Shown here: positions 2,597 through 63,790 of the stretch, piece after piece | Position numbering within the stretch: position 1 is the first letter of the stretch | How the letters are laid out: each line of letters opens with the position of its first letter | Assembly: GCF_056712565.1 (NCBI RefSeq) | Contig: NZ_JBWXXM010000004.1 | Strand: one strand, 5' to 3' | DNA: 64,000 nt | Origin: a plasmid | The notes under the pieces: generated by a model | What the model saw: only the letters and a program-made list of their open reading frames with translations | The model's database searches: none | Told to the model about the DNA's origin: nothing | Made by a program: the position numbers and the translations under genes

Positions 2597-2735
2597 CGAA
2601 AGTCATCCTTTATGCTGTATTTTTGAATTTAATTAAAAATGCTGCATAAAATAATAATGTATGCGTAGATGCTTGTACATAGCATTCTCTGCATGTTTGG
2701 TTCATTTTGCACGATTGAGAGTTACAAGGAGGGCA

Positions 2736-2757
2736 CAAAAAAGCCCCGTTCAGGGGC
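2736..2757 (-). terminator. rho-independent terminator after T5orf172-like gene
   Basis: Minus-strand stem GCCCC-GAACG-GGGGC followed by T-run (plus strand CAAAAAAGCCCCGTTCAGGGGC). Confidence 0.6.
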
Positions 2758-2764
2758 ATCAGTG

Positions 2765-3574
2765 TTATTTGCTAAGAGCAGCGAATAATCGTTCGAAATC
2801 GATAGTATCTATAGCACGCGTAAGCGCCGGAAGTTCAGCCTCAAAGTACCCGTGTCGATCGTAAAAGAAGGGACCGAAGAGCGAGGCATGTTGGATTCTA
2901 CTTCGCCCCAGCCCGGACACACAGTTAAGCCCATTACCGGCTAAAAGGCTAAAAAACTTCTCTGGATTATCGTGGTAAAGCTGGGAATCAATGGTGGCGG
3001 TTAACTCTTCCATAGGGAAGCACACCCGCCCTGTATCCCAGGGATATTTAGTCCGAAGCATAAACATTGCTTTCAGCAATTCACATTGAGCGCGGATCGC
3101 GTCCGGTTCATAGCCAGATATGGAGACATAAGCCACGTCCCTCATTCCTGCGTCATCTTTGAAAGTCACGATAGAAGTAACATCCAGCTCTTTTTCGAAA
3201 GAGCAAGCAGCATCTACTGGACGCTGAAGTAAATCATTCGACTTAATGCGCTCGAGAATCCCTCCCCACATATCATTTAGATATTCGATATGAGCCAAAA
3301 CCTTATCAAGACACTCTCGTGTAAACCATTCAGTATGCCCGCCACCGACGCTTTTCTCCCACGGCGCATTCCAGGGGAAAAAGGTTGCGTGTAAAGCCCG
3401 CTCAAGATTAACCATTGCCAAACGCGTACCACGATAGACCCGTGAAAGCGCAAAATCGGGACTCACTTGTAGTCCTTTAAACCGTGCCAATGGACCACAT
3501 GAAATGCCGATTTTAAAAGTATCTCCGTTCTCTGGCACCAGAACGTAGAGGTAGTGTTGTTTCTCTTCTTGCAT
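2765..3574 (-). CDS. T5orf172 / GIY-YIG-like domain protein
   Basis: 269-aa ORF; N-terminus YLYVLVPENGDTFKIGIS resembles T5orf172 (GIY-YIG-like) signature; own terminator; lies between iteron array and parA. Confidence 0.55.
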   Translation of the reverse strand: MQEEKQHYLYVLVPENGDTFKIGISCGPLARFKGLQVSPDFALSRVYRGTRLAMVNLERALHATFFPWNAPWEKSVGGGHTEWFTRECLDKVLAHIEYLNDMWGGILERIKSNDLLQRPVDAACSFEKELDVTSIVTFKDDAGMRDVAYVSISGYEPDAIRAQCELLKAMFMLRTKYPWDTGRVCFPMEELTATIDSQLYHDNPEKFFSLLAGNGLNCVSGLGRSRIQHASLFGPFFYDRHGYFEAELPALTRAIDTIDFERLFAALSK

Positions 3575-3608
3575 ATCAATACCACTGCTTGATGAGAACC
3601 GCGCAAAT

Positions 3609-3865
3609 GTTGACTATGCGCGAAGGTTAATGTGAATAGTTGACTATGCGCGATGTGACTACAGTCAAAAGTTGACTGTAGTCGATTTAACTCCACCAAA
3701 GATCGACTATGTAAGATATTGTCGGGAGAAACGTTGACTATACGCGATGAAATGCCCCTAAAAGCCATCTCAATAGCGACTTGCAGAATATTGACGCCAG
3801 CAAAAATCCACCAGCGTCAACGAATGTCGCCTATAGTCAACTTCTCGCTATCGCATATAGTCAAT
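3609..3865. repeat. iteron array downstream of repA (incA-like copy-control locus), about 8-9 copies
   Basis: Repeated GTTGACTATGCGCGA / CGC.TATAGTCAA units in both orientations at 3609, 3639, 3671, 3701, 3733, 3828, 3852 and others. Confidence 0.7.
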
Positions 3866-3866
3866 A

Positions 3867-4787
3867 TTATGGATTGCGCTTATGGATCTGGAAGCCGATT
3901 TTCCTGCCGTTTTTTATCTCTGAAAATTTAAGATATTCAATAGCTTCCAAATCTTTCATGGCTTTTCTGATAACGCTATTTTGCACGCTAACGGATGATT
4001 TGAGATTAAGCCTCGCTCTAAGGCGCTCAATGCTGACAGGTGCCGGGTTGGCGGGTAGAGCCTCAAAGAATGTATACAGTACCTTGGCCGTCTCTTTGCG
4101 CCCTAGTTTATCCAGCATCTTCAGCTTCAGGATTCGCTTATAGTCAACATAGTAAAGTTCAGATAGCTGTTTCTGCGGCTGGATCTCGATAACATCAAGC
4201 TCGGTATTCAGGCTGCTATATGCCAACAAGTTGACGTTAATGTTATTGAGATGACCTTTTGCCGCCGGGAAGCGGAATTTGACAACTGTCTGCTGAATGC
4301 GTGTCAGAGAGTCATCAATACTTTTACGGAACGCCTTTGAAAGGCGCTTACGTGGATAGCCGCATCGATCGGCAAACTCGGAGAATGGCAGGGTGATTAT
4401 GCCGTCATCATCAGGTGCGTAGTCAAACAACGCGGAAGTTATGCCCACCCACACCTTAAAATCAGTATCCATATCCAGGCGTGGACCATGAATTTCAATT
4501 CCCTCATAGCCTTCCTGCTCAACAATTTTGAGGCTTGATAGTTCTTCAGTTGCGTTCGTTGTGTTTGTTGTAACTGACGATCCGCGACGTAGCGCCACAT
4601 TGGTAGATTTTAAGGTTGGCACAAACACACCTAAGCGCAACAAAGCGATGGGTTGTATAGTGCTGTTGTTATTGGGCTTCAGGCTGTGGATTTCTCCTGT
4701 ATTTCCTGCAACTTCTTCAACGCTAAGGAAGCCTTTACTTTCTTCCGGCATCACGGTTTCTCCATGTGTGGCGCGGCCTGACGTCAA
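3867..4787 (-). CDS. repA: RepA plasmid replication initiator (iteron-binding)
   Basis: 306-aa ORF flanked by iteron arrays on both sides; RepA-like motifs (GPRLDMDTDFKVW); alternative start at 4751. Confidence 0.8.
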   Translation of the reverse strand: MTSGRATHGETVMPEESKGFLSVEEVAGNTGEIHSLKPNNNSTIQPIALLRLGVFVPTLKSTNVALRRGSSVTTNTTNATEELSSLKIVEQEGYEGIEIHGPRLDMDTDFKVWVGITSALFDYAPDDDGIITLPFSEFADRCGYPRKRLSKAFRKSIDDSLTRIQQTVVKFRFPAAKGHLNNINVNLLAYSSLNTELDVIEIQPQKQLSELYYVDYKRILKLKMLDKLGRKETAKVLYTFFEALPANPAPVSIERLRARLNLKSSVSVQNSVIRKAMKDLEAIEYLKFSEIKNGRKIGFQIHKRNP

Positions 4788-4835
4788 TTTGGATGGCTGT
4801 TATCAACAGCTGTGAATATTCAGACTCTAAAATCG

Positions 4836-4933
4836 CTTACAGTCAATGTTTCTGTCGCGTATAGTCAACAATAAATCGCGTGCAGTCAACAATAAATCGT
4901 GCACAGTCAACATAAAATCGCGTATAGTCAATG
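4836..4933. repeat. origin iterons, 5 copies at about 21-bp spacing
   Basis: CGCGTATAGTCAAC-type repeats at 4836, 4857, 4877, 4898, 4919 directly upstream of repA. Confidence 0.75.
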
Positions 4934-4935
4934 TT

Positions 4936-5043
4936 GATCCCATTTCAGGCCAGTAATGACGCGGCTTACAGCGATCCGGGATCTTCTTTGGATCTTCCTA
5001 GGTTCTCTTTAGGATCTGTTTATTGGATCTATGCTGTGGATAA
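4936..5043. promoter_or_regulatory. origin-associated GATC cluster (6 Dam sites) and DnaA box
   Basis: GATC at 4936, 4973, 4980, 4991, 5013, 5026; TGTGGATAAG at 5035-5044 is the reverse complement of DnaA box TTATCCACA. Confidence 0.65.
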
Positions 5044-5086
5044 GTTGAATAAACCGGCCAACAAAGCCGGTTGGAAGGAAGTCATA

Positions 5087-5479
5087 TTATTCTACGCTTT
5101 CGATAAGAAGACCATGTTCATAACATTTAAGCTCATCGCCTTCATACAGGAATTGGTATCCAATACCACCATTTTCATGGACATTAGGGAATAACTCATA
5201 ACTCACTGAAGAGCAAATCACACCAATGCAGCGATCAACGCCTTCTCGTTCTTCAGTGCTGAAAAAATCCTCTTCGGTAAGAACATGAGTACATTGCTCA
5301 TCAGCATAGGTCGGAAATACATGCTCGATGCAATCCGGGTGTTTTAAACCAAGCTGATCGGCAAGCTCGAAAGCATGACGGTATTGTTCAGATCCTGGCT
5401 TGCCAACAGTGATGTGCTCAATTTTGTAGATTGAAGTCGCTTTGTTGATAGTTTGCTTTACTGTTACTTTATCAGACAT
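5087..5479 (-). CDS. hypothetical protein (upfA-like position)
   Basis: 130-aa ORF upstream of repA origin in same orientation as neighbours. Confidence 0.5.
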   Translation of the reverse strand: MSDKVTVKQTINKATSIYKIEHITVGKPGSEQYRHAFELADQLGLKHPDCIEHVFPTYADEQCTHVLTEEDFFSTEEREGVDRCIGVICSSVSYELFPNVHENGGIGYQFLYEGDELKCYEHGLLIESVE

Positions 5480-7281: not shown

Positions 7282-7298
7282 ATTGCTCTAATAAATAT
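7282..7298 (+). promoter_or_regulatory. C1-operator-like site
   Basis: ATTGCTCTAATAAATAT upstream of uhr-hrdC. Confidence 0.55.
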
Positions 7299-7654: not shown

Positions 7655-8552
7655 GCACTGGAAAAACATTACTATTTATAAACTTTCTCGTGAGGCGGAT
7701 CTGACCGACTTAGAAGATAAAAAGAAAATGATCCTTTTCACGCCATGCGGTAGTCAGGATATGGCCAAGTTCGGTTTTGTATCGCCATTTGGTGATAATT
7801 CCGAAGTTATCGCTATGCATGGAAATGGTTTTATCCTTGTTGAAGCAAAGCGCGAAACAAAAATTCTTCCCCCGCCGGTTATCCAGCGAGCTATTCAAGA
7901 AAAAATTGAAAAACTTGAGCAAGAACAAGCGCGTAAACTGAAGAAAACAGAGAAGGACTCCCTGAAAGACGAAGTTCTGCATTCTCTTCTGCCACGGGCT
8001 TTTTCAAAGTTTTCTGTTATCCAGGCGATCTACGACGGTTCAACTAAACGTATCTATATCAATGCCAGCGCGCGGCAGGCAGAGGATATGCTCGCGCTTA
8101 TGCGTAAGTCTCTTGGTTCTCTTCCTGTTGTTCCCCTGAGTGTTGAAAATCCCATTGAATTAACGCTGACCGACTGGGTACGTGATGGTAGTGCTCCACA
8201 GGGATTTCAAATGGGGGATGCGGCAGAACTTAAGGCAGTGCTTGAGGATGGCGGTATTGCCCGAGTGAAAAAGCAGGATTTGGGAAGCGATGAAATTTCC
8301 ACACACCTGGAAGCTGGCAAGCTCGTCACTAAGTTGGCACTCGACTGGCAGAACCGCATTAAATTTACACTGGACCATAACTTCAGCCTTACCAGCGTCA
8401 AATTTGCGGATGAATTGCTTGAGCAGAACTCTGATATTGATAGTGAAGATGTTGCGCAGCGACTGGACGCAGATTTCTTCCTGTTAACCAGTGAAATTTC
8501 GTGCCTGGTTGATGCTCTGGTAAATGCCCTTGGTGGAGAGGCTAAGCAGTGA
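7647..8552 (+). CDS. hrdC: RdgC-like recombination-associated protein
   Basis: N-terminus [13 protein letters not shown] and [45 protein letters not shown] match RdgC family essentially residue by residue. Confidence 0.85.
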
Positions 8553-38694: not shown

Positions 38695-39887
38695 GTGACC
38701 TGGGACGATCACAAGAAGAATTTTGCTCGCCTGGCGCGAGATGGTGGTTACACCATCGCACAATATGCCGCCGAGTTTAATCTCAACCCAAACACCGCAC
38801 GTCGTTATCTCCGTGCATTCAAAGAAGACACCGGAACAGCGGACAGCCGTAAGCCAAATAAGCCTGTCAGAAAACCACTAAAAAGCATGATCATTGATCA
38901 CGCTAATGATCAACGTGCAGGTGATCACATTGTGGCTGAAATGGCTGAAAAACAAAGAGTTAATGCTGTTGTCAGTGCCGCAGTCGAGAACGCGAAGCGC
39001 CAGAATAAGCGCATAAATGATCGTTCTGATGATCATGACGTGATCACCCGCGCCCACCGGACCTTACGTGATCGCCTGGAACGCGACACCCTGGATGATG
39101 ATGGTGAACGCTTTGAATTCGAAGCTGGCGATTACCTGATAGATAACGTTGAAGCGCGGAAGGCCGCGCGCGCTATGTTGCGTCGGTCCGGGGCTGATGT
39201 TCTGGAAACCACTCTTCTGGAAAAGTCTCTCTCTCATCTCCTTATGCTGGAGAACGCCAGGGATACGTGTATTCGCTTGGTTCAGGAAATGCGCGATCAG
39301 CAAAAAGACGATGATGAAGGAACTCCGCCTGAATACCGTATCGCGAGCATGCTAAACAGCTGTTCCGCGCAGATAAGCAGCCTGATCAACACCATTTACA
39401 GCATCCGGAATAACTATCGAAAAGAAAGCCGGGAGGCGGAAAAGCACGCTTTGTCTATGGGGCAAGCTGGCATTGTAAGCTGGCATACGAACGAAAGCGT
39501 GAAAACAACTGGTCAGTGCTGGAGGCAGCTGAATTCATCGAGGCGCATGGAGGGAAAGTACCGCCCCTGATGCTGGAGCAAATCAAAGCCGATCTGCGTG
39601 CTCCTAAGACCAATACCGATGATGAGGAAAGGCAAACAGCCGTCGGTGGCCCTTCTCTTGAAGATCTGGACAAAGTTGCGCGAGAACGGGCCGCCAACCG
39701 CCGCGCCGATGCCGCATTGTGGATTGAGCAGCGTAGGGAAGAAATCGCCGATATCGTTGATACAGGCGGTTATGGAGATGTTGATACTGAAGGTGTATCA
39801 AACGACCCATGGCTGGAACAAGACCTGGACGAAGACGAGGAGGAAGACGAAGAAGTTACCCGCAAGCTATACGGGGATGATGATTAA
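38695..39887 (+). CDS. pacA: PacA small terminase subunit, reading frame interrupted near 39450
   Basis: Frame 1 (38695-39570) and frame 0 (to 39887) join seamlessly if the TTT run at 39450-39452 were TTTT; reconstructed length 397 aa. Confidence 0.7.
38888..39046. other. pac: pac packaging site (4 + 3 TGATCA/G hexamers)
   Basis: TGATCA at 38888, 38895, 38907, 38922 and TGATCG/TGATCA at 39018, 39030, 39041 inside pacA. Confidence 0.75.
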
Positions 39888-60813: not shown

Positions 60814-63790
60814 TATTTAGCTCCTTTGCCACACCTAATAACAGTTCCAGCAATCCGTCACCATTCATCAGTGATGCGGCAGCGGCCTCTTTGTCATGAT
60901 ACAACTGAAGAGCCATAGAGAATACTTCCGTTGCTGACGTTTTGGAAATAGTCGGTGATTTCTGCCGAATTTTCCCGGAATTACTCACTGAGGCTGGCGG
61001 GTATACCTTCGCCATATAAATATTACTCAATCGAGATCTGAAGCACCATTCAGGCTTGCCACGCCCACCGATATTAACGAAAGATGGCTTATCCCCTTCA
61101 ACATTGGCCTTCAGGAATGACCGGGCTTTCTCTAACAAACCAGGGTTACTGTACTCAAGATGATGACCCAGCTCGTGCCACAGTGCACTTGCATTTTCAT
61201 CGTTCAAATTGACAGCAACAACACCATTAAGATTTGCATATGCCCTTCCCTGGTGGTGAACCACCTTTGTTAAGGTCGAAATTTTACCGCCGGTCAGGCG
61301 ATAAATATCAGCAAGTTCCTTGCGCAGGTCTATCCCACCATTCTGTCCAGCGCGGGCTTCTTCCACTTCTTCCGTGATAAAAGAGTCGGCCCACTCAAGA
61401 GCTTTTTCTTCAGATACGGATGAGTTGGCGATCGCACTGTTCATGGCAGATAACACTTTCTCGTGGACCGAACCCATACTTCGCTGATTCATTTGCCAGC
61501 GTGTCTGCGGGTTATATGAGAATCGCTTAAGTAGTTGGTCAAGCTGCTCAAGTTCTTCTTCACTGACATACTTTTTAGCCTCACCAATAATGCCAGGGAG
61601 AATATTGCCGTTAGGATTAAACGCTCGCGAAAGGAAGAGTTTCAGCGCCCCCATGCCCTCCGATGCTTCAATATCACCAATAACCCGGTTAACAATGGCC
61701 GCACTCTTCGGATTAGCATCCGCCAACGCTCTGGCTACGATTTGCAGGGACGATACGACCTCACGCTGCATATCCGTCCTGATCTCATCAATAAACTCTG
61801 GCGTTATGCCGTGCTCTTTAAGGATATCCCGGCCTTCCGCCGTTACCCCATCGATATCACCGACATGTTTATTAACACGACTTTGCAATGCCTTAAATGC
61901 CTTCAGAATTCCACGGGCATCATCCGCTTTACTAACGGCCTTCCTGAATGCTGGCAAGAAGTCAGAGTTAACCTCATTTTGTTGATCGGCCCACTGAATG
62001 GAGGCTTCTTTCATCTCGTCCAGAGTCAGATCACCCAACGCGGTATGGTCTGTGAATATGAGCGACAACCTCTGAACCATTTCTGCCAATGGTGATGCCG
62101 AATGCGCCGCGCTAAGGAATGCTTTCACCCTGGTTGGGCGAATGGAAAACCAGTCAATAGCTGGTGGCATATCTCCGTTTTTTATCGCCTGCGCTATCTC
62201 ATCAAAGCCGTCGCGCCCAAGGGAGGATGCGTGATTTAACAATCCGCGAAGTAACGAATTGCTGATACCGAATAATCGGCACCATTTATTCACGTCGGCA
62301 ACAGGCATTCGAACAAAATGCGCAAGCACTTGTACAAGCTGTTCATCCTGGGGATCTGTACGGGAAAGCAGCCTGATCAGATGAATAATGTCTTTGATGC
62401 CGGATGCCCGATGTAATAGCAAGCTGGTATATGGAGCAACACCGTTGTAACTACCGCCGGAAACGGACTCGAAAAGACCGCCGGATATCCCTTGCATGCC
62501 TTCGTTTTCCAGTTCCTGAGACACCTGGCGAAGGATATCCTGTAACGACACATCACCACCGCCAAACATATCCCCCAGCGCCTGGCCCTGGTGCTGTAAC
62601 TCATCATTGATACGTTGAGCCATCAATTTAAAGGCGGTGGCCATACGCTTCGCGCTACGGTTATTCGCGACGATGAACAACGCGAGAGCTTTCACTTCCG
62701 GGGCTGTTTCGCTGAACATATCCCCCTGAGCAATAACATCGGTAATATGTTGGCCTGACTCCTTCGATTGCCTTACCAGGTCTACCGCATCTTTCAATGC
62801 CGCCAGCGCCTTTTTATCGAGACTATCCGCTGTCTCAATACCATCAACAATAGTTGTCACAGCCTGCTTGTGCGCTTCTCCTGATAAAGCCTGCATCTGG
62901 ACAAAATCATTGGCTGCCGCATTAAGCGCCGTCAGAACATTACGCATATCCGGATCAGGTTCTTCTGCAACCATCCTTACCAGGCGCGCATCCTTATATG
63001 CCTTGGCAAAGATCGCGTTTTGTATACGGTCAACAAGTTGCCGCGTTGGTCGCCCATCTTCCGTTACAAGGCCAGCCGCCTGTGTGGCACCAACTTGCGT
63101 CATAAATCCGCGAATAAACGCGTCATTACTGCGGCTAAGCAGATCTCCGCTTTCTGACGGGTTAAAAAGCGCCATCATCGCCGGTGTTATGCTGTCGGCA
63201 TCAACAAAAGCCTTTTCACTGGCTGCCATTTCCTGAAGATCAGAAATATTTGAGTCCTTGGCAAACTGAACGCGGTCAACCTTGGTTAACCGGCGGCGCA
63301 CCAGTACCGGAGCCGTCATTGATTCAACCTTTTCAGGTCGTATGCCGAATTCGGTCGCATGATCAATCAGGTACTCACGATACCGATCCGCATTGCCGTC
63401 CTGATAGGCTTTGATGATCCCCATGGTCCGTCCATTACCTGACTCAACGGCATTGTCCTCACCAATTATCGGCGCACCATGGCTGGATAAACCGGAATCA
63501 GTAAGCTGAGCAGGCCGCAAATCTTTGGATATCTGGTTAACCTGAAGAAGGCTGGATGCGCGGGTCCGGTCGCGCGGCTGAAGTTCCTGGGGATAGTCAG
63601 GATTAATTTTCCCATCCAGAGTATTGGATACCAAAAGAGCTGAGGCATCGACGATATCAAACGCTGTTTTTACCTCGTCTCCCTTCGCTGTCACCACATA
63701 CGAAACCCGCCCATAACCGGGCAGGTTCTTTAGCAGCTCGATCAGCGTTTCTATGCTGGTGGCCATTACCACCTGATCGCTTAAGCTCAT
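60803..63790 (-). CDS. ddrB: DdrB-like large virion protein (HExxH metallopeptidase-like motif)
   Basis: 995-aa ORF; HELGHHLEY motif; position between ssb side and darA-operon genes. Confidence 0.55.
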   Translation of the reverse strand: MSLSDQVVMATSIETLIELLKNLPGYGRVSYVVTAKGDEVKTAFDIVDASALLVSNTLDGKINPDYPQELQPRDRTRASSLLQVNQISKDLRPAQLTDSGLSSHGAPIIGEDNAVESGNGRTMGIIKAYQDGNADRYREYLIDHATEFGIRPEKVESMTAPVLVRRRLTKVDRVQFAKDSNISDLQEMAASEKAFVDADSITPAMMALFNPSESGDLLSRSNDAFIRGFMTQVGATQAAGLVTEDGRPTRQLVDRIQNAIFAKAYKDARLVRMVAEEPDPDMRNVLTALNAAANDFVQMQALSGEAHKQAVTTIVDGIETADSLDKKALAALKDAVDLVRQSKESGQHITDVIAQGDMFSETAPEVKALALFIVANNRSAKRMATAFKLMAQRINDELQHQGQALGDMFGGGDVSLQDILRQVSQELENEGMQGISGGLFESVSGGSYNGVAPYTSLLLHRASGIKDIIHLIRLLSRTDPQDEQLVQVLAHFVRMPVADVNKWCRLFGISNSLLRGLLNHASSLGRDGFDEIAQAIKNGDMPPAIDWFSIRPTRVKAFLSAAHSASPLAEMVQRLSLIFTDHTALGDLTLDEMKEASIQWADQQNEVNSDFLPAFRKAVSKADDARGILKAFKALQSRVNKHVGDIDGVTAEGRDILKEHGITPEFIDEIRTDMQREVVSSLQIVARALADANPKSAAIVNRVIGDIEASEGMGALKLFLSRAFNPNGNILPGIIGEAKKYVSEEELEQLDQLLKRFSYNPQTRWQMNQRSMGSVHEKVLSAMNSAIANSSVSEEKALEWADSFITEEVEEARAGQNGGIDLRKELADIYRLTGGKISTLTKVVHHQGRAYANLNGVVAVNLNDENASALWHELGHHLEYSNPGLLEKARSFLKANVEGDKPSFVNIGGRGKPEWCFRSRLSNIYMAKVYPPASVSNSGKIRQKSPTISKTSATEVFSMALQLYHDKEAAAASLMNGDGLLELLLGVAKELNNAD

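Follow-up and report, generated by a model that had tools for sequence, protein, structure and literature searches.

Base-level anatomy of what is very probably the p0111 replicon of a P1-like phage-plasmid

P1-like phage-plasmids carry ESBL and other resistance genes between hosts, and the coexistence of two of them in one cell depends on the specificity with which RepA recognizes its iterons. The question raised by the locus described here is which replicon it contains, whether that replicon is the one found in P1 and P7 (IncY), and which enzyme would methylate its origin. The window, which is the whole stretch of 64,000 nucleotides that was analysed, comes from plasmid contig NZ_JBWXXM010000004.1 (assembly GCF_056712565.1). 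A preliminary description had placed a complete iteron replicon of the P1 type at 3609-5043. We are highly confident that the segment from 3607 to 5043 serves a P1-like phage-plasmid as its low-copy plasmid-prophage replicon and represents the p0111 (SJ46/RCS47/JL22) version. The p0111 replicon found here is already catalogued and ordinary, and it reveals no new biology.

The origin and its outer end contain the following features.

4831..4934, plus strand: five origin iterons (incC equivalent), direct 19-mers starting at 4831, 4853, 4874, 4895 and 4916
4936..5029, no strand: Dam-site region, with GATC at 4936, 4973, 4980, 4991, 5013 and 5026
Inside 4936..5029: conserved GC-rich spacer GCGCGGC between the GATC sites and the iterons
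5035-5043, minus strand: DnaA box without mismatch, TTATCCACA, at the origin's outer end
4800..4819: two DnaA-box-like 9-mers with one mismatch each, TTATCAACA on the plus strand and ATATTCACA on the minus strand, between the iterons and the repA start
5058-5074: upfA terminator hairpin

The iteron sequence of the p0111 replicon is TCGCgtAtAGTCAAc, and the cores of the five origin copies (TCG..AGTCAA) begin at 4833, 4855, 4876, 4897 and 4918. When the 15-mer TCGCGTATAGTCAAC was searched for with up to 3 mismatches, 12 matches were found in the 64 kb where 1.1 were expected; all 12 lie in 3609-4932, and no shuffled sequence reached that number. A position weight matrix (PWM) built from these 12 strong sites scores them at 23.4-27.8, and the best score elsewhere in the window is 13.8. 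The two invariant blocks of the iteron, TCG and AGTCAA, have centres about 9.5 bp apart, and this separation of roughly one helical turn fits a single protein that would contact two successive major grooves. Each origin iteron also contains TTGACT, a hexamer resembling a -35 element, on the repA-sense strand. The five-iteron origin of the preliminary description, its 21-bp spacing (22, 21, 21 and 21 bp or about two helical turns, exactly the spacing in P1), its six GATC sites and its DnaA box all hold at the positions given above.

No other 100-bp stretch of the window is as rich in GATC as the one with these six sites, which span 94 bp, and when the 260 GATC sites of the window were placed at random, at least six fell within 100 bp in 25 of 2000 trials (1.25%). 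The paired DnaA-box-like 9-mers at 4800-4819 are suggestive only, since boxes with one mismatch are common (5 in 1.7 kb); P1 likewise has imperfect DnaA boxes in the same place. A search of the origin with a strict IHF consensus found no site, and no AT-rich unwinding element was marked, the GC fraction of the GATC region being 0.40-0.52.

The presence of a Dam-like domain in Dmt had led to the suggestion that the element supplies its own methylation for origin function. The domain is indeed present: dmt (8549-10813) is intact, and its product has C5 and D12-class N6-adenine methyltransferase domains (Pfam). The Dam-like domain of Dmt might thus methylate the plasmid origin independently of host Dam, a reading that draws on the GATC sites in the origin and on the requirement of P1 replication for methylated DNA, as expressed in the titles of Abeles & Austin 1987 and Abeles et al. 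1993 (cited in PMC2865523). A C1 operator with one mismatch to the consensus, however, occupies 7282-7298, just ahead of uhr-hrdC-dmt, where P1 has its annotated Odmt/Pdmt, and the segment around it is 96% identical to P1. Because this operator precedes the operon, dmt should be off in the plasmid-prophage state, and host Dam is therefore the expected methylase, which the natural hosts E. coli and Salmonella encode. Mini-P1 plasmids without dmt can replicate where the host is dam+ but not where it is dam-, and the established target of P1 adenine methylation is the set of TGATCA/G hexamers in pac. In the window the pac site lies inside pacA, with hexamer clusters at 38888-38926 and 39018-39073 that rank second and third in GATC density within the window. 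Methylation of the origin by Dmt without host Dam is for these reasons quite improbable, and the suggestion of self-methylation is not upheld.

The C1-operator consensus ATTGCTCTAATAAATTT has fifteen matches in the window against 0.33 expected, the operator at 7282-7298 being one of them. An overlapping inverted pair of such operators is located at 10804-10831, just past dmt.

The gene that would encode the initiator lies next to the origin.

3867..4751, minus strand: repA, predicted iteron-binding initiator, 294 aa, ATG at 4751, Shine-Dalgarno sequence GGAG

The gene is intact, as had been described, and its coding sequence coincides with the one annotated in RefSeq relatives. Over 272 residues RepA and P1 RepA share 42% identity (BLASTP, E 9e-71); the same value of 42% has been published for SJ46 RepA (PMC5241659). 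In Pfam the protein scores 27.3 bits for Rep3_C (cut-off 21.1) and 22.0 bits for Rep3_N, which is 0.4 below the cut-off of 22.4, and it belongs to PHROG 775. Neither RepA nor P1 RepA has a family in NCBIfam, and the T5orf172 protein described below has none either; a sequence search of the PDB with RepA returned matches at chance level only. An AlphaFold model of RepA computed from an eight-sequence family alignment (mean pLDDT 73) matches the folds of RctB domains 2-3, RepE, RepE54-DNA complexes, pi and the WH1 domain of pPS10 RepA, with a probability of about 1.0 and with low whole-chain TM-scores that we attribute to a different orientation of the two RepA domains. The model supports placement of RepA in the WH1-WH2 iteron-initiator (Rep3/RepE) class, whose members would have two winged-helix domains. 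A scan for a consensus sigma-70 promoter that could serve as PrepA on the minus strand within the iterons detected none, so that the case for repA autorepression by promoter occlusion comes from the TTGACT hexamers of the iterons and from P1.

Iterons are also found on the other side of repA, where PWM and mismatch scans give the following map. Each strong control iteron has a PWM score within 23.4-27.8.

3607..3867, minus strand: incA-like copy-control array 3' of repA
3607-3625, minus strand: strong control iteron
3637-3655, minus strand: strong control iteron
3653-3671, plus strand: degenerate iteron remnant, 11/19 positions, below the PWM reporting thresholds of 8 and 6
3669-3687, minus strand: strong control iteron
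3700-3718, minus strand: degenerate iteron remnant, 11/19 positions, PWM score about 8
3731-3749, minus strand: strong control iteron
3805-3823, plus strand: degenerate iteron remnant, 11/19 positions, PWM score about 8
3825-3843, plus strand: strong control iteron
3849-3867, plus strand: strong control iteron
4132-4150, plus strand: extra full-strength iteron inside repA, PWM score 26.2 (best score beyond the replicon, 13.8)

P1 incA has nine iterons, six in one orientation and three in the other. Here six strong sites (four inverted, two direct) are accompanied by two or three degenerate ones. Some of the invariant bases are missing from the sites at 3700, 3805 and 3653, and the PWM scores of about 8 for the first two fall inside the background range of the window. 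A slot near 3762, where the register of P1 would put a ninth control iteron, was scanned and is empty (5/19 matches). Of the nine-iteron control array given in the preliminary description, then, six sites stand at full strength, and the remainder are reduced to these remnants and an empty slot. The distal group is spaced at about 31 bp (30, 32, 31 and 31) and is inverted with respect to the origin iterons, while the sites at 3825 and 3849 have the orientation of the origin set. The last control iteron shares one base with the repA stop codon, exactly as copy 9 does in P1. The skeleton of P1 incA thus appears still recognizable in the sequence of the control array.

The intragenic iteron at 4132-4150 was absent from the earlier count. 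It falls on the codons for VDYKRI, has the same orientation as the origin iterons, and is kept in RCS47 and SJ46, the p0111 variants that were checked; P1 repA lacks it. RepA bound at this site could form a roadblock to transcription, or the site could supply an additional partner for handcuffing. It is conceivable, though on balance unlikely, that the p0111 control circuit differs from that of P1 in having an array cut to six functional sites together with a seventh full-strength RepA site within repA.

The assignment to p0111 rests on near identity of repA and of the whole replicon to P1-like elements that have been given this type. In megablast searches the 1,481-bp replicon matched phi456 (99.9%), SJ46 (98.4%), JL22 (98.4%) and RCS47 (97.8%) over 100% of the query, and in these elements of the p0111 type the replicon and the T5orf172 gene that accompanies it are essentially the same as in the window. 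The PlasmidFinder reference for p0111 is AP010962, a plasmid of E. coli O111, and identity to it is indirect, by way of JL22, SJ46 and RCS47. Twelve phage records and about 400 plasmids (399 PLSDB records) match the replicon at 97.8-100% identity, with many E. coli and Salmonella plasmids at 100%. Among 5,426 complete E. coli genomes, 414 have the replicon, in 467 places, of which 459 are on plasmids. The other 8 of the 467 places are chromosomal and could be integrated P1-like elements or assembly artefacts.

The p0111 type is well known in P1-like elements. JL22 was described as a P1 with "repA' (p0111)" and an unknown gene, gp57, in place of repA (IncY), and p0111 repA' was presented as a plasmid replication gene that replaces IncY repA in P1-like phage-plasmids maintained as plasmids (PMC9603915). 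Elements with the p0111 replicon persist as plasmids (PMC9603915, PMC5241659). The types p0111 and IncY are the two that occur among 55 P1-like elements, in 24 and 31 of them, respectively (PMC9603915), and in Salmonella 132 p0111 elements were counted versus 94 IncY elements (PMC11165635). In the searchable p0111 literature we found no mention of iterons and no experiments on the p0111 origin, its iterons or its dependence on Dam. The anatomy given here at the level of bases is annotation detail rather than discovery, since iterons go unmentioned in those p0111 papers that can be searched.

It might be asked whether the locus is instead a decaying, non-functional remnant, with another replicon maintaining the element. 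In favour of this reading, two or three positions of the control array are degenerate, and a single DnaA box is left where P1 has two. One DnaA box is nevertheless reported to be sufficient at the P1 origin (Abeles et al. 1990, as cited in PMC4980987). The intact repA is 100% conserved in about 390 plasmids; relatives with an overall divergence of about 2% retain all five origin iterons, the six in the control array, the GATC sites and the DnaA box; and the published description of p0111 repA cited above is that of the plasmid replication gene that takes the place of IncY repA (PMC9603915). We regard a remnant as highly improbable, and we take the locus to be the replicon of the element.

The relationship of the p0111 replicon to that of P1 differs from one segment to the next. 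The order of elements is that of oriR-repA-incA in P1 and P7, and the genomic slot, between par and upfA, is the same. The incC iterons of P1 start at 62688, 62710, 62731, 62752 and 62773 of the P1 record, with the spacing of 22/21/21/21 seen in p0111. In both, the incA array begins on the repA stop codon and its distal sites are inverted, and in both a GC-rich spacer and an outer DnaA box are present. The layout of a P1-type R replicon that had been proposed is therefore well founded in element order, in the number and spacing of iterons, in the overlap with the stop codon, in the inverted distal sites and in RepA homology. The iterons themselves, in contrast, are unrelated in sequence, TCGCgtAtAGTCAAc in p0111 and GATGTGTGCTGGAGGGAAA in P1, and the P1 iteron has no match with 3 or fewer mismatches anywhere in the 64-kb window. 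Further differences are that P1 has two tandem outer DnaA boxes and p0111 one, as a result of a 7-bp deletion; that P1 has nine control iterons and p0111 six strong ones; and that p0111 has an iteron within repA and a T5orf172 gene between incA and Ppar, both of which P1 lacks.

At the level of DNA, positions 690-2698 of the window match P1 parB-parA-Ppar at 99% identity, and the sequence that starts at about 5088 (upfA, mlp, ppfA, upfB, upfC, uhr, hrdC and dmt) again matches P1, at 96-100%. In the block between them, nucleotide similarity to P1 and P7 is absent over 2699-4948, and identity reaches only 60-88% over 4949-5087. By blastn, the similarity of the replicon to P1 and P7 is confined to the segment with the GATC sites and DnaA box, and in megablast neither P1 nor P7 matched the replicon. 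The GATC/DnaA part is homologous: window positions 4973-5029 align with P1 62831-62885, and four of the five Dam sites of P1 align. As a group, the five GATC sites at 4973, 4980, 4991, 5013 and 5026 are syntenic with the five Dam sites annotated in P1 oriR. Dam site 4 of P1 has been lost in p0111 (GGTTCT near 5000-5005), and a GATC has been gained at 5013 where P1 has GGACCT, so that with one site lost and one gained the cluster stays at five.

The comparison of RepA and iterons with P1 and P7, which had been proposed as a check on the preliminary description, thus yielded a homologous RepA and an iteron sequence unrelated to that of P1. An identification of the locus with the P1/P7 (IncY) replicon, RepA-iteron specificity included, is a reading that its layout and its position between par and upfA would favour but that is close to untenable and refuted by the sequence, given the 42% identity of RepA, the lack of any P1 iteron, the lack of DNA similarity to P1 over 2699-4948 and of a megablast match to P1 or P7, and the separation of p0111 from IncY in published typing (PMC9603915, PMC11165635). 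Because RepA is only 42% identical and the iterons differ, the p0111 replicon is best regarded as homologous to that of P1 but diverged from it, with a RepA-iteron specificity of its own, and not as IncY, and because of the same differences a p0111 element should be compatible with IncY P1/P7 plasmids.

The segment without similarity to P1 extends beyond the replicon toward par and includes one more gene.

2765..3574, minus strand: T5orf172/GIY-YIG-family open reading frame, 269 aa, Pfam PF10544, PHROG 2876 and 681

This open reading frame is situated between the control array and the par promoter, directly downstream of the iterons and within the swapped module, and it is absent from P1 and P7 at that position. 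RefSeq names the product "GIY-YIG nuclease family protein", its PHROG 2876 match is to a family of unknown function, and it corresponds to the "gp57" of the JL22 paper (PMC9603915). The T5orf172/GIY-YIG gene might be regulated by RepA, or it might promote the swapping of replicons between P1-like elements. On the far side of this gene, parA and parB (382-2596) are 99% P1-type. RCS47 and SJ46 were reported to have P7-type par (PMC5241659). Since the same replicon is accompanied by P1-type par here and by P7-type par in RCS47 and SJ46, the replication and partition modules reassort independently.

RepA belongs to a wider family in which the p0111 proteins form a tight group. In tblastn searches RepA was found at 99% identity or more in 392 plasmids, and very few records fall in the range from 60% to 99%. 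Below that range, the closest relative sampled is from a Providencia plasmid (53.5%), and thousands of IncFIB-type initiators come next, at 44-49%. Loci from Providencia, K. michiganensis and Pantoea (RepA identity 45-54%) have four or five upstream iterons in a 21-22 bp register. Across these three loci the iteron sequence is lineage-specific and initiator and iteron co-vary, as is expected of a functional specificity pair. The automatic iteron finder gave no origin iterons at the E. coli RepFIB and Enterobacter loci and two only at the Raoultella locus, and these three loci were excluded as evidence on layout.

RepFIB/IncFIB-type replicons and that of Providencia pPROV040-OXA share with p0111 the RepA family (44-54% identity), the upstream register of 21-22 bp and the presence of more iterons downstream. 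They differ in having their own iteron sequences, in downstream arrays that range from none to dozens of iterons, and in not being set in a P1 phage backbone. The pPROV040-OXA iteron, GTTGATGCTAGTCGAT, resembles that of p0111, and repA of this plasmid contains an intragenic iteron of its own, which lies at aa 142, a codon other than that in p0111, and is oriented the other way. Downstream of repA, at 3267-4108 of the pPROV040-OXA locus, are about 20 tandem 43-bp units with two iteron-like sites each. The same locus has two copies of an origin-like block with a DnaA box, GATC sites and iterons, at 1747-1940 and 2097-2316.

By analogy with P1, a scheme for how the p0111 replicon would work can be outlined. 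RepA monomers would bind the five 19-bp origin iterons and, together with host DnaA at the 5035-5043 box, would open the adjacent GATC region for loading of the host replisome. Methylation of its GATC sites by host Dam would be required; after the origin has fired, these sites would be hemimethylated and sequestered, which would delay re-initiation. RepA bound at the origin would also be expected to repress repA. Titration of RepA and handcuffing of the origin may fall to the downstream array, probably with a contribution from the intragenic site, and would hold copy number near one.

The map may be of use in annotation through its iteron consensus, six strong control sites, intragenic site and single DnaA box. 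It also gives, at the level of bases, a mechanistic reason why p0111 and IncY elements should be compatible.
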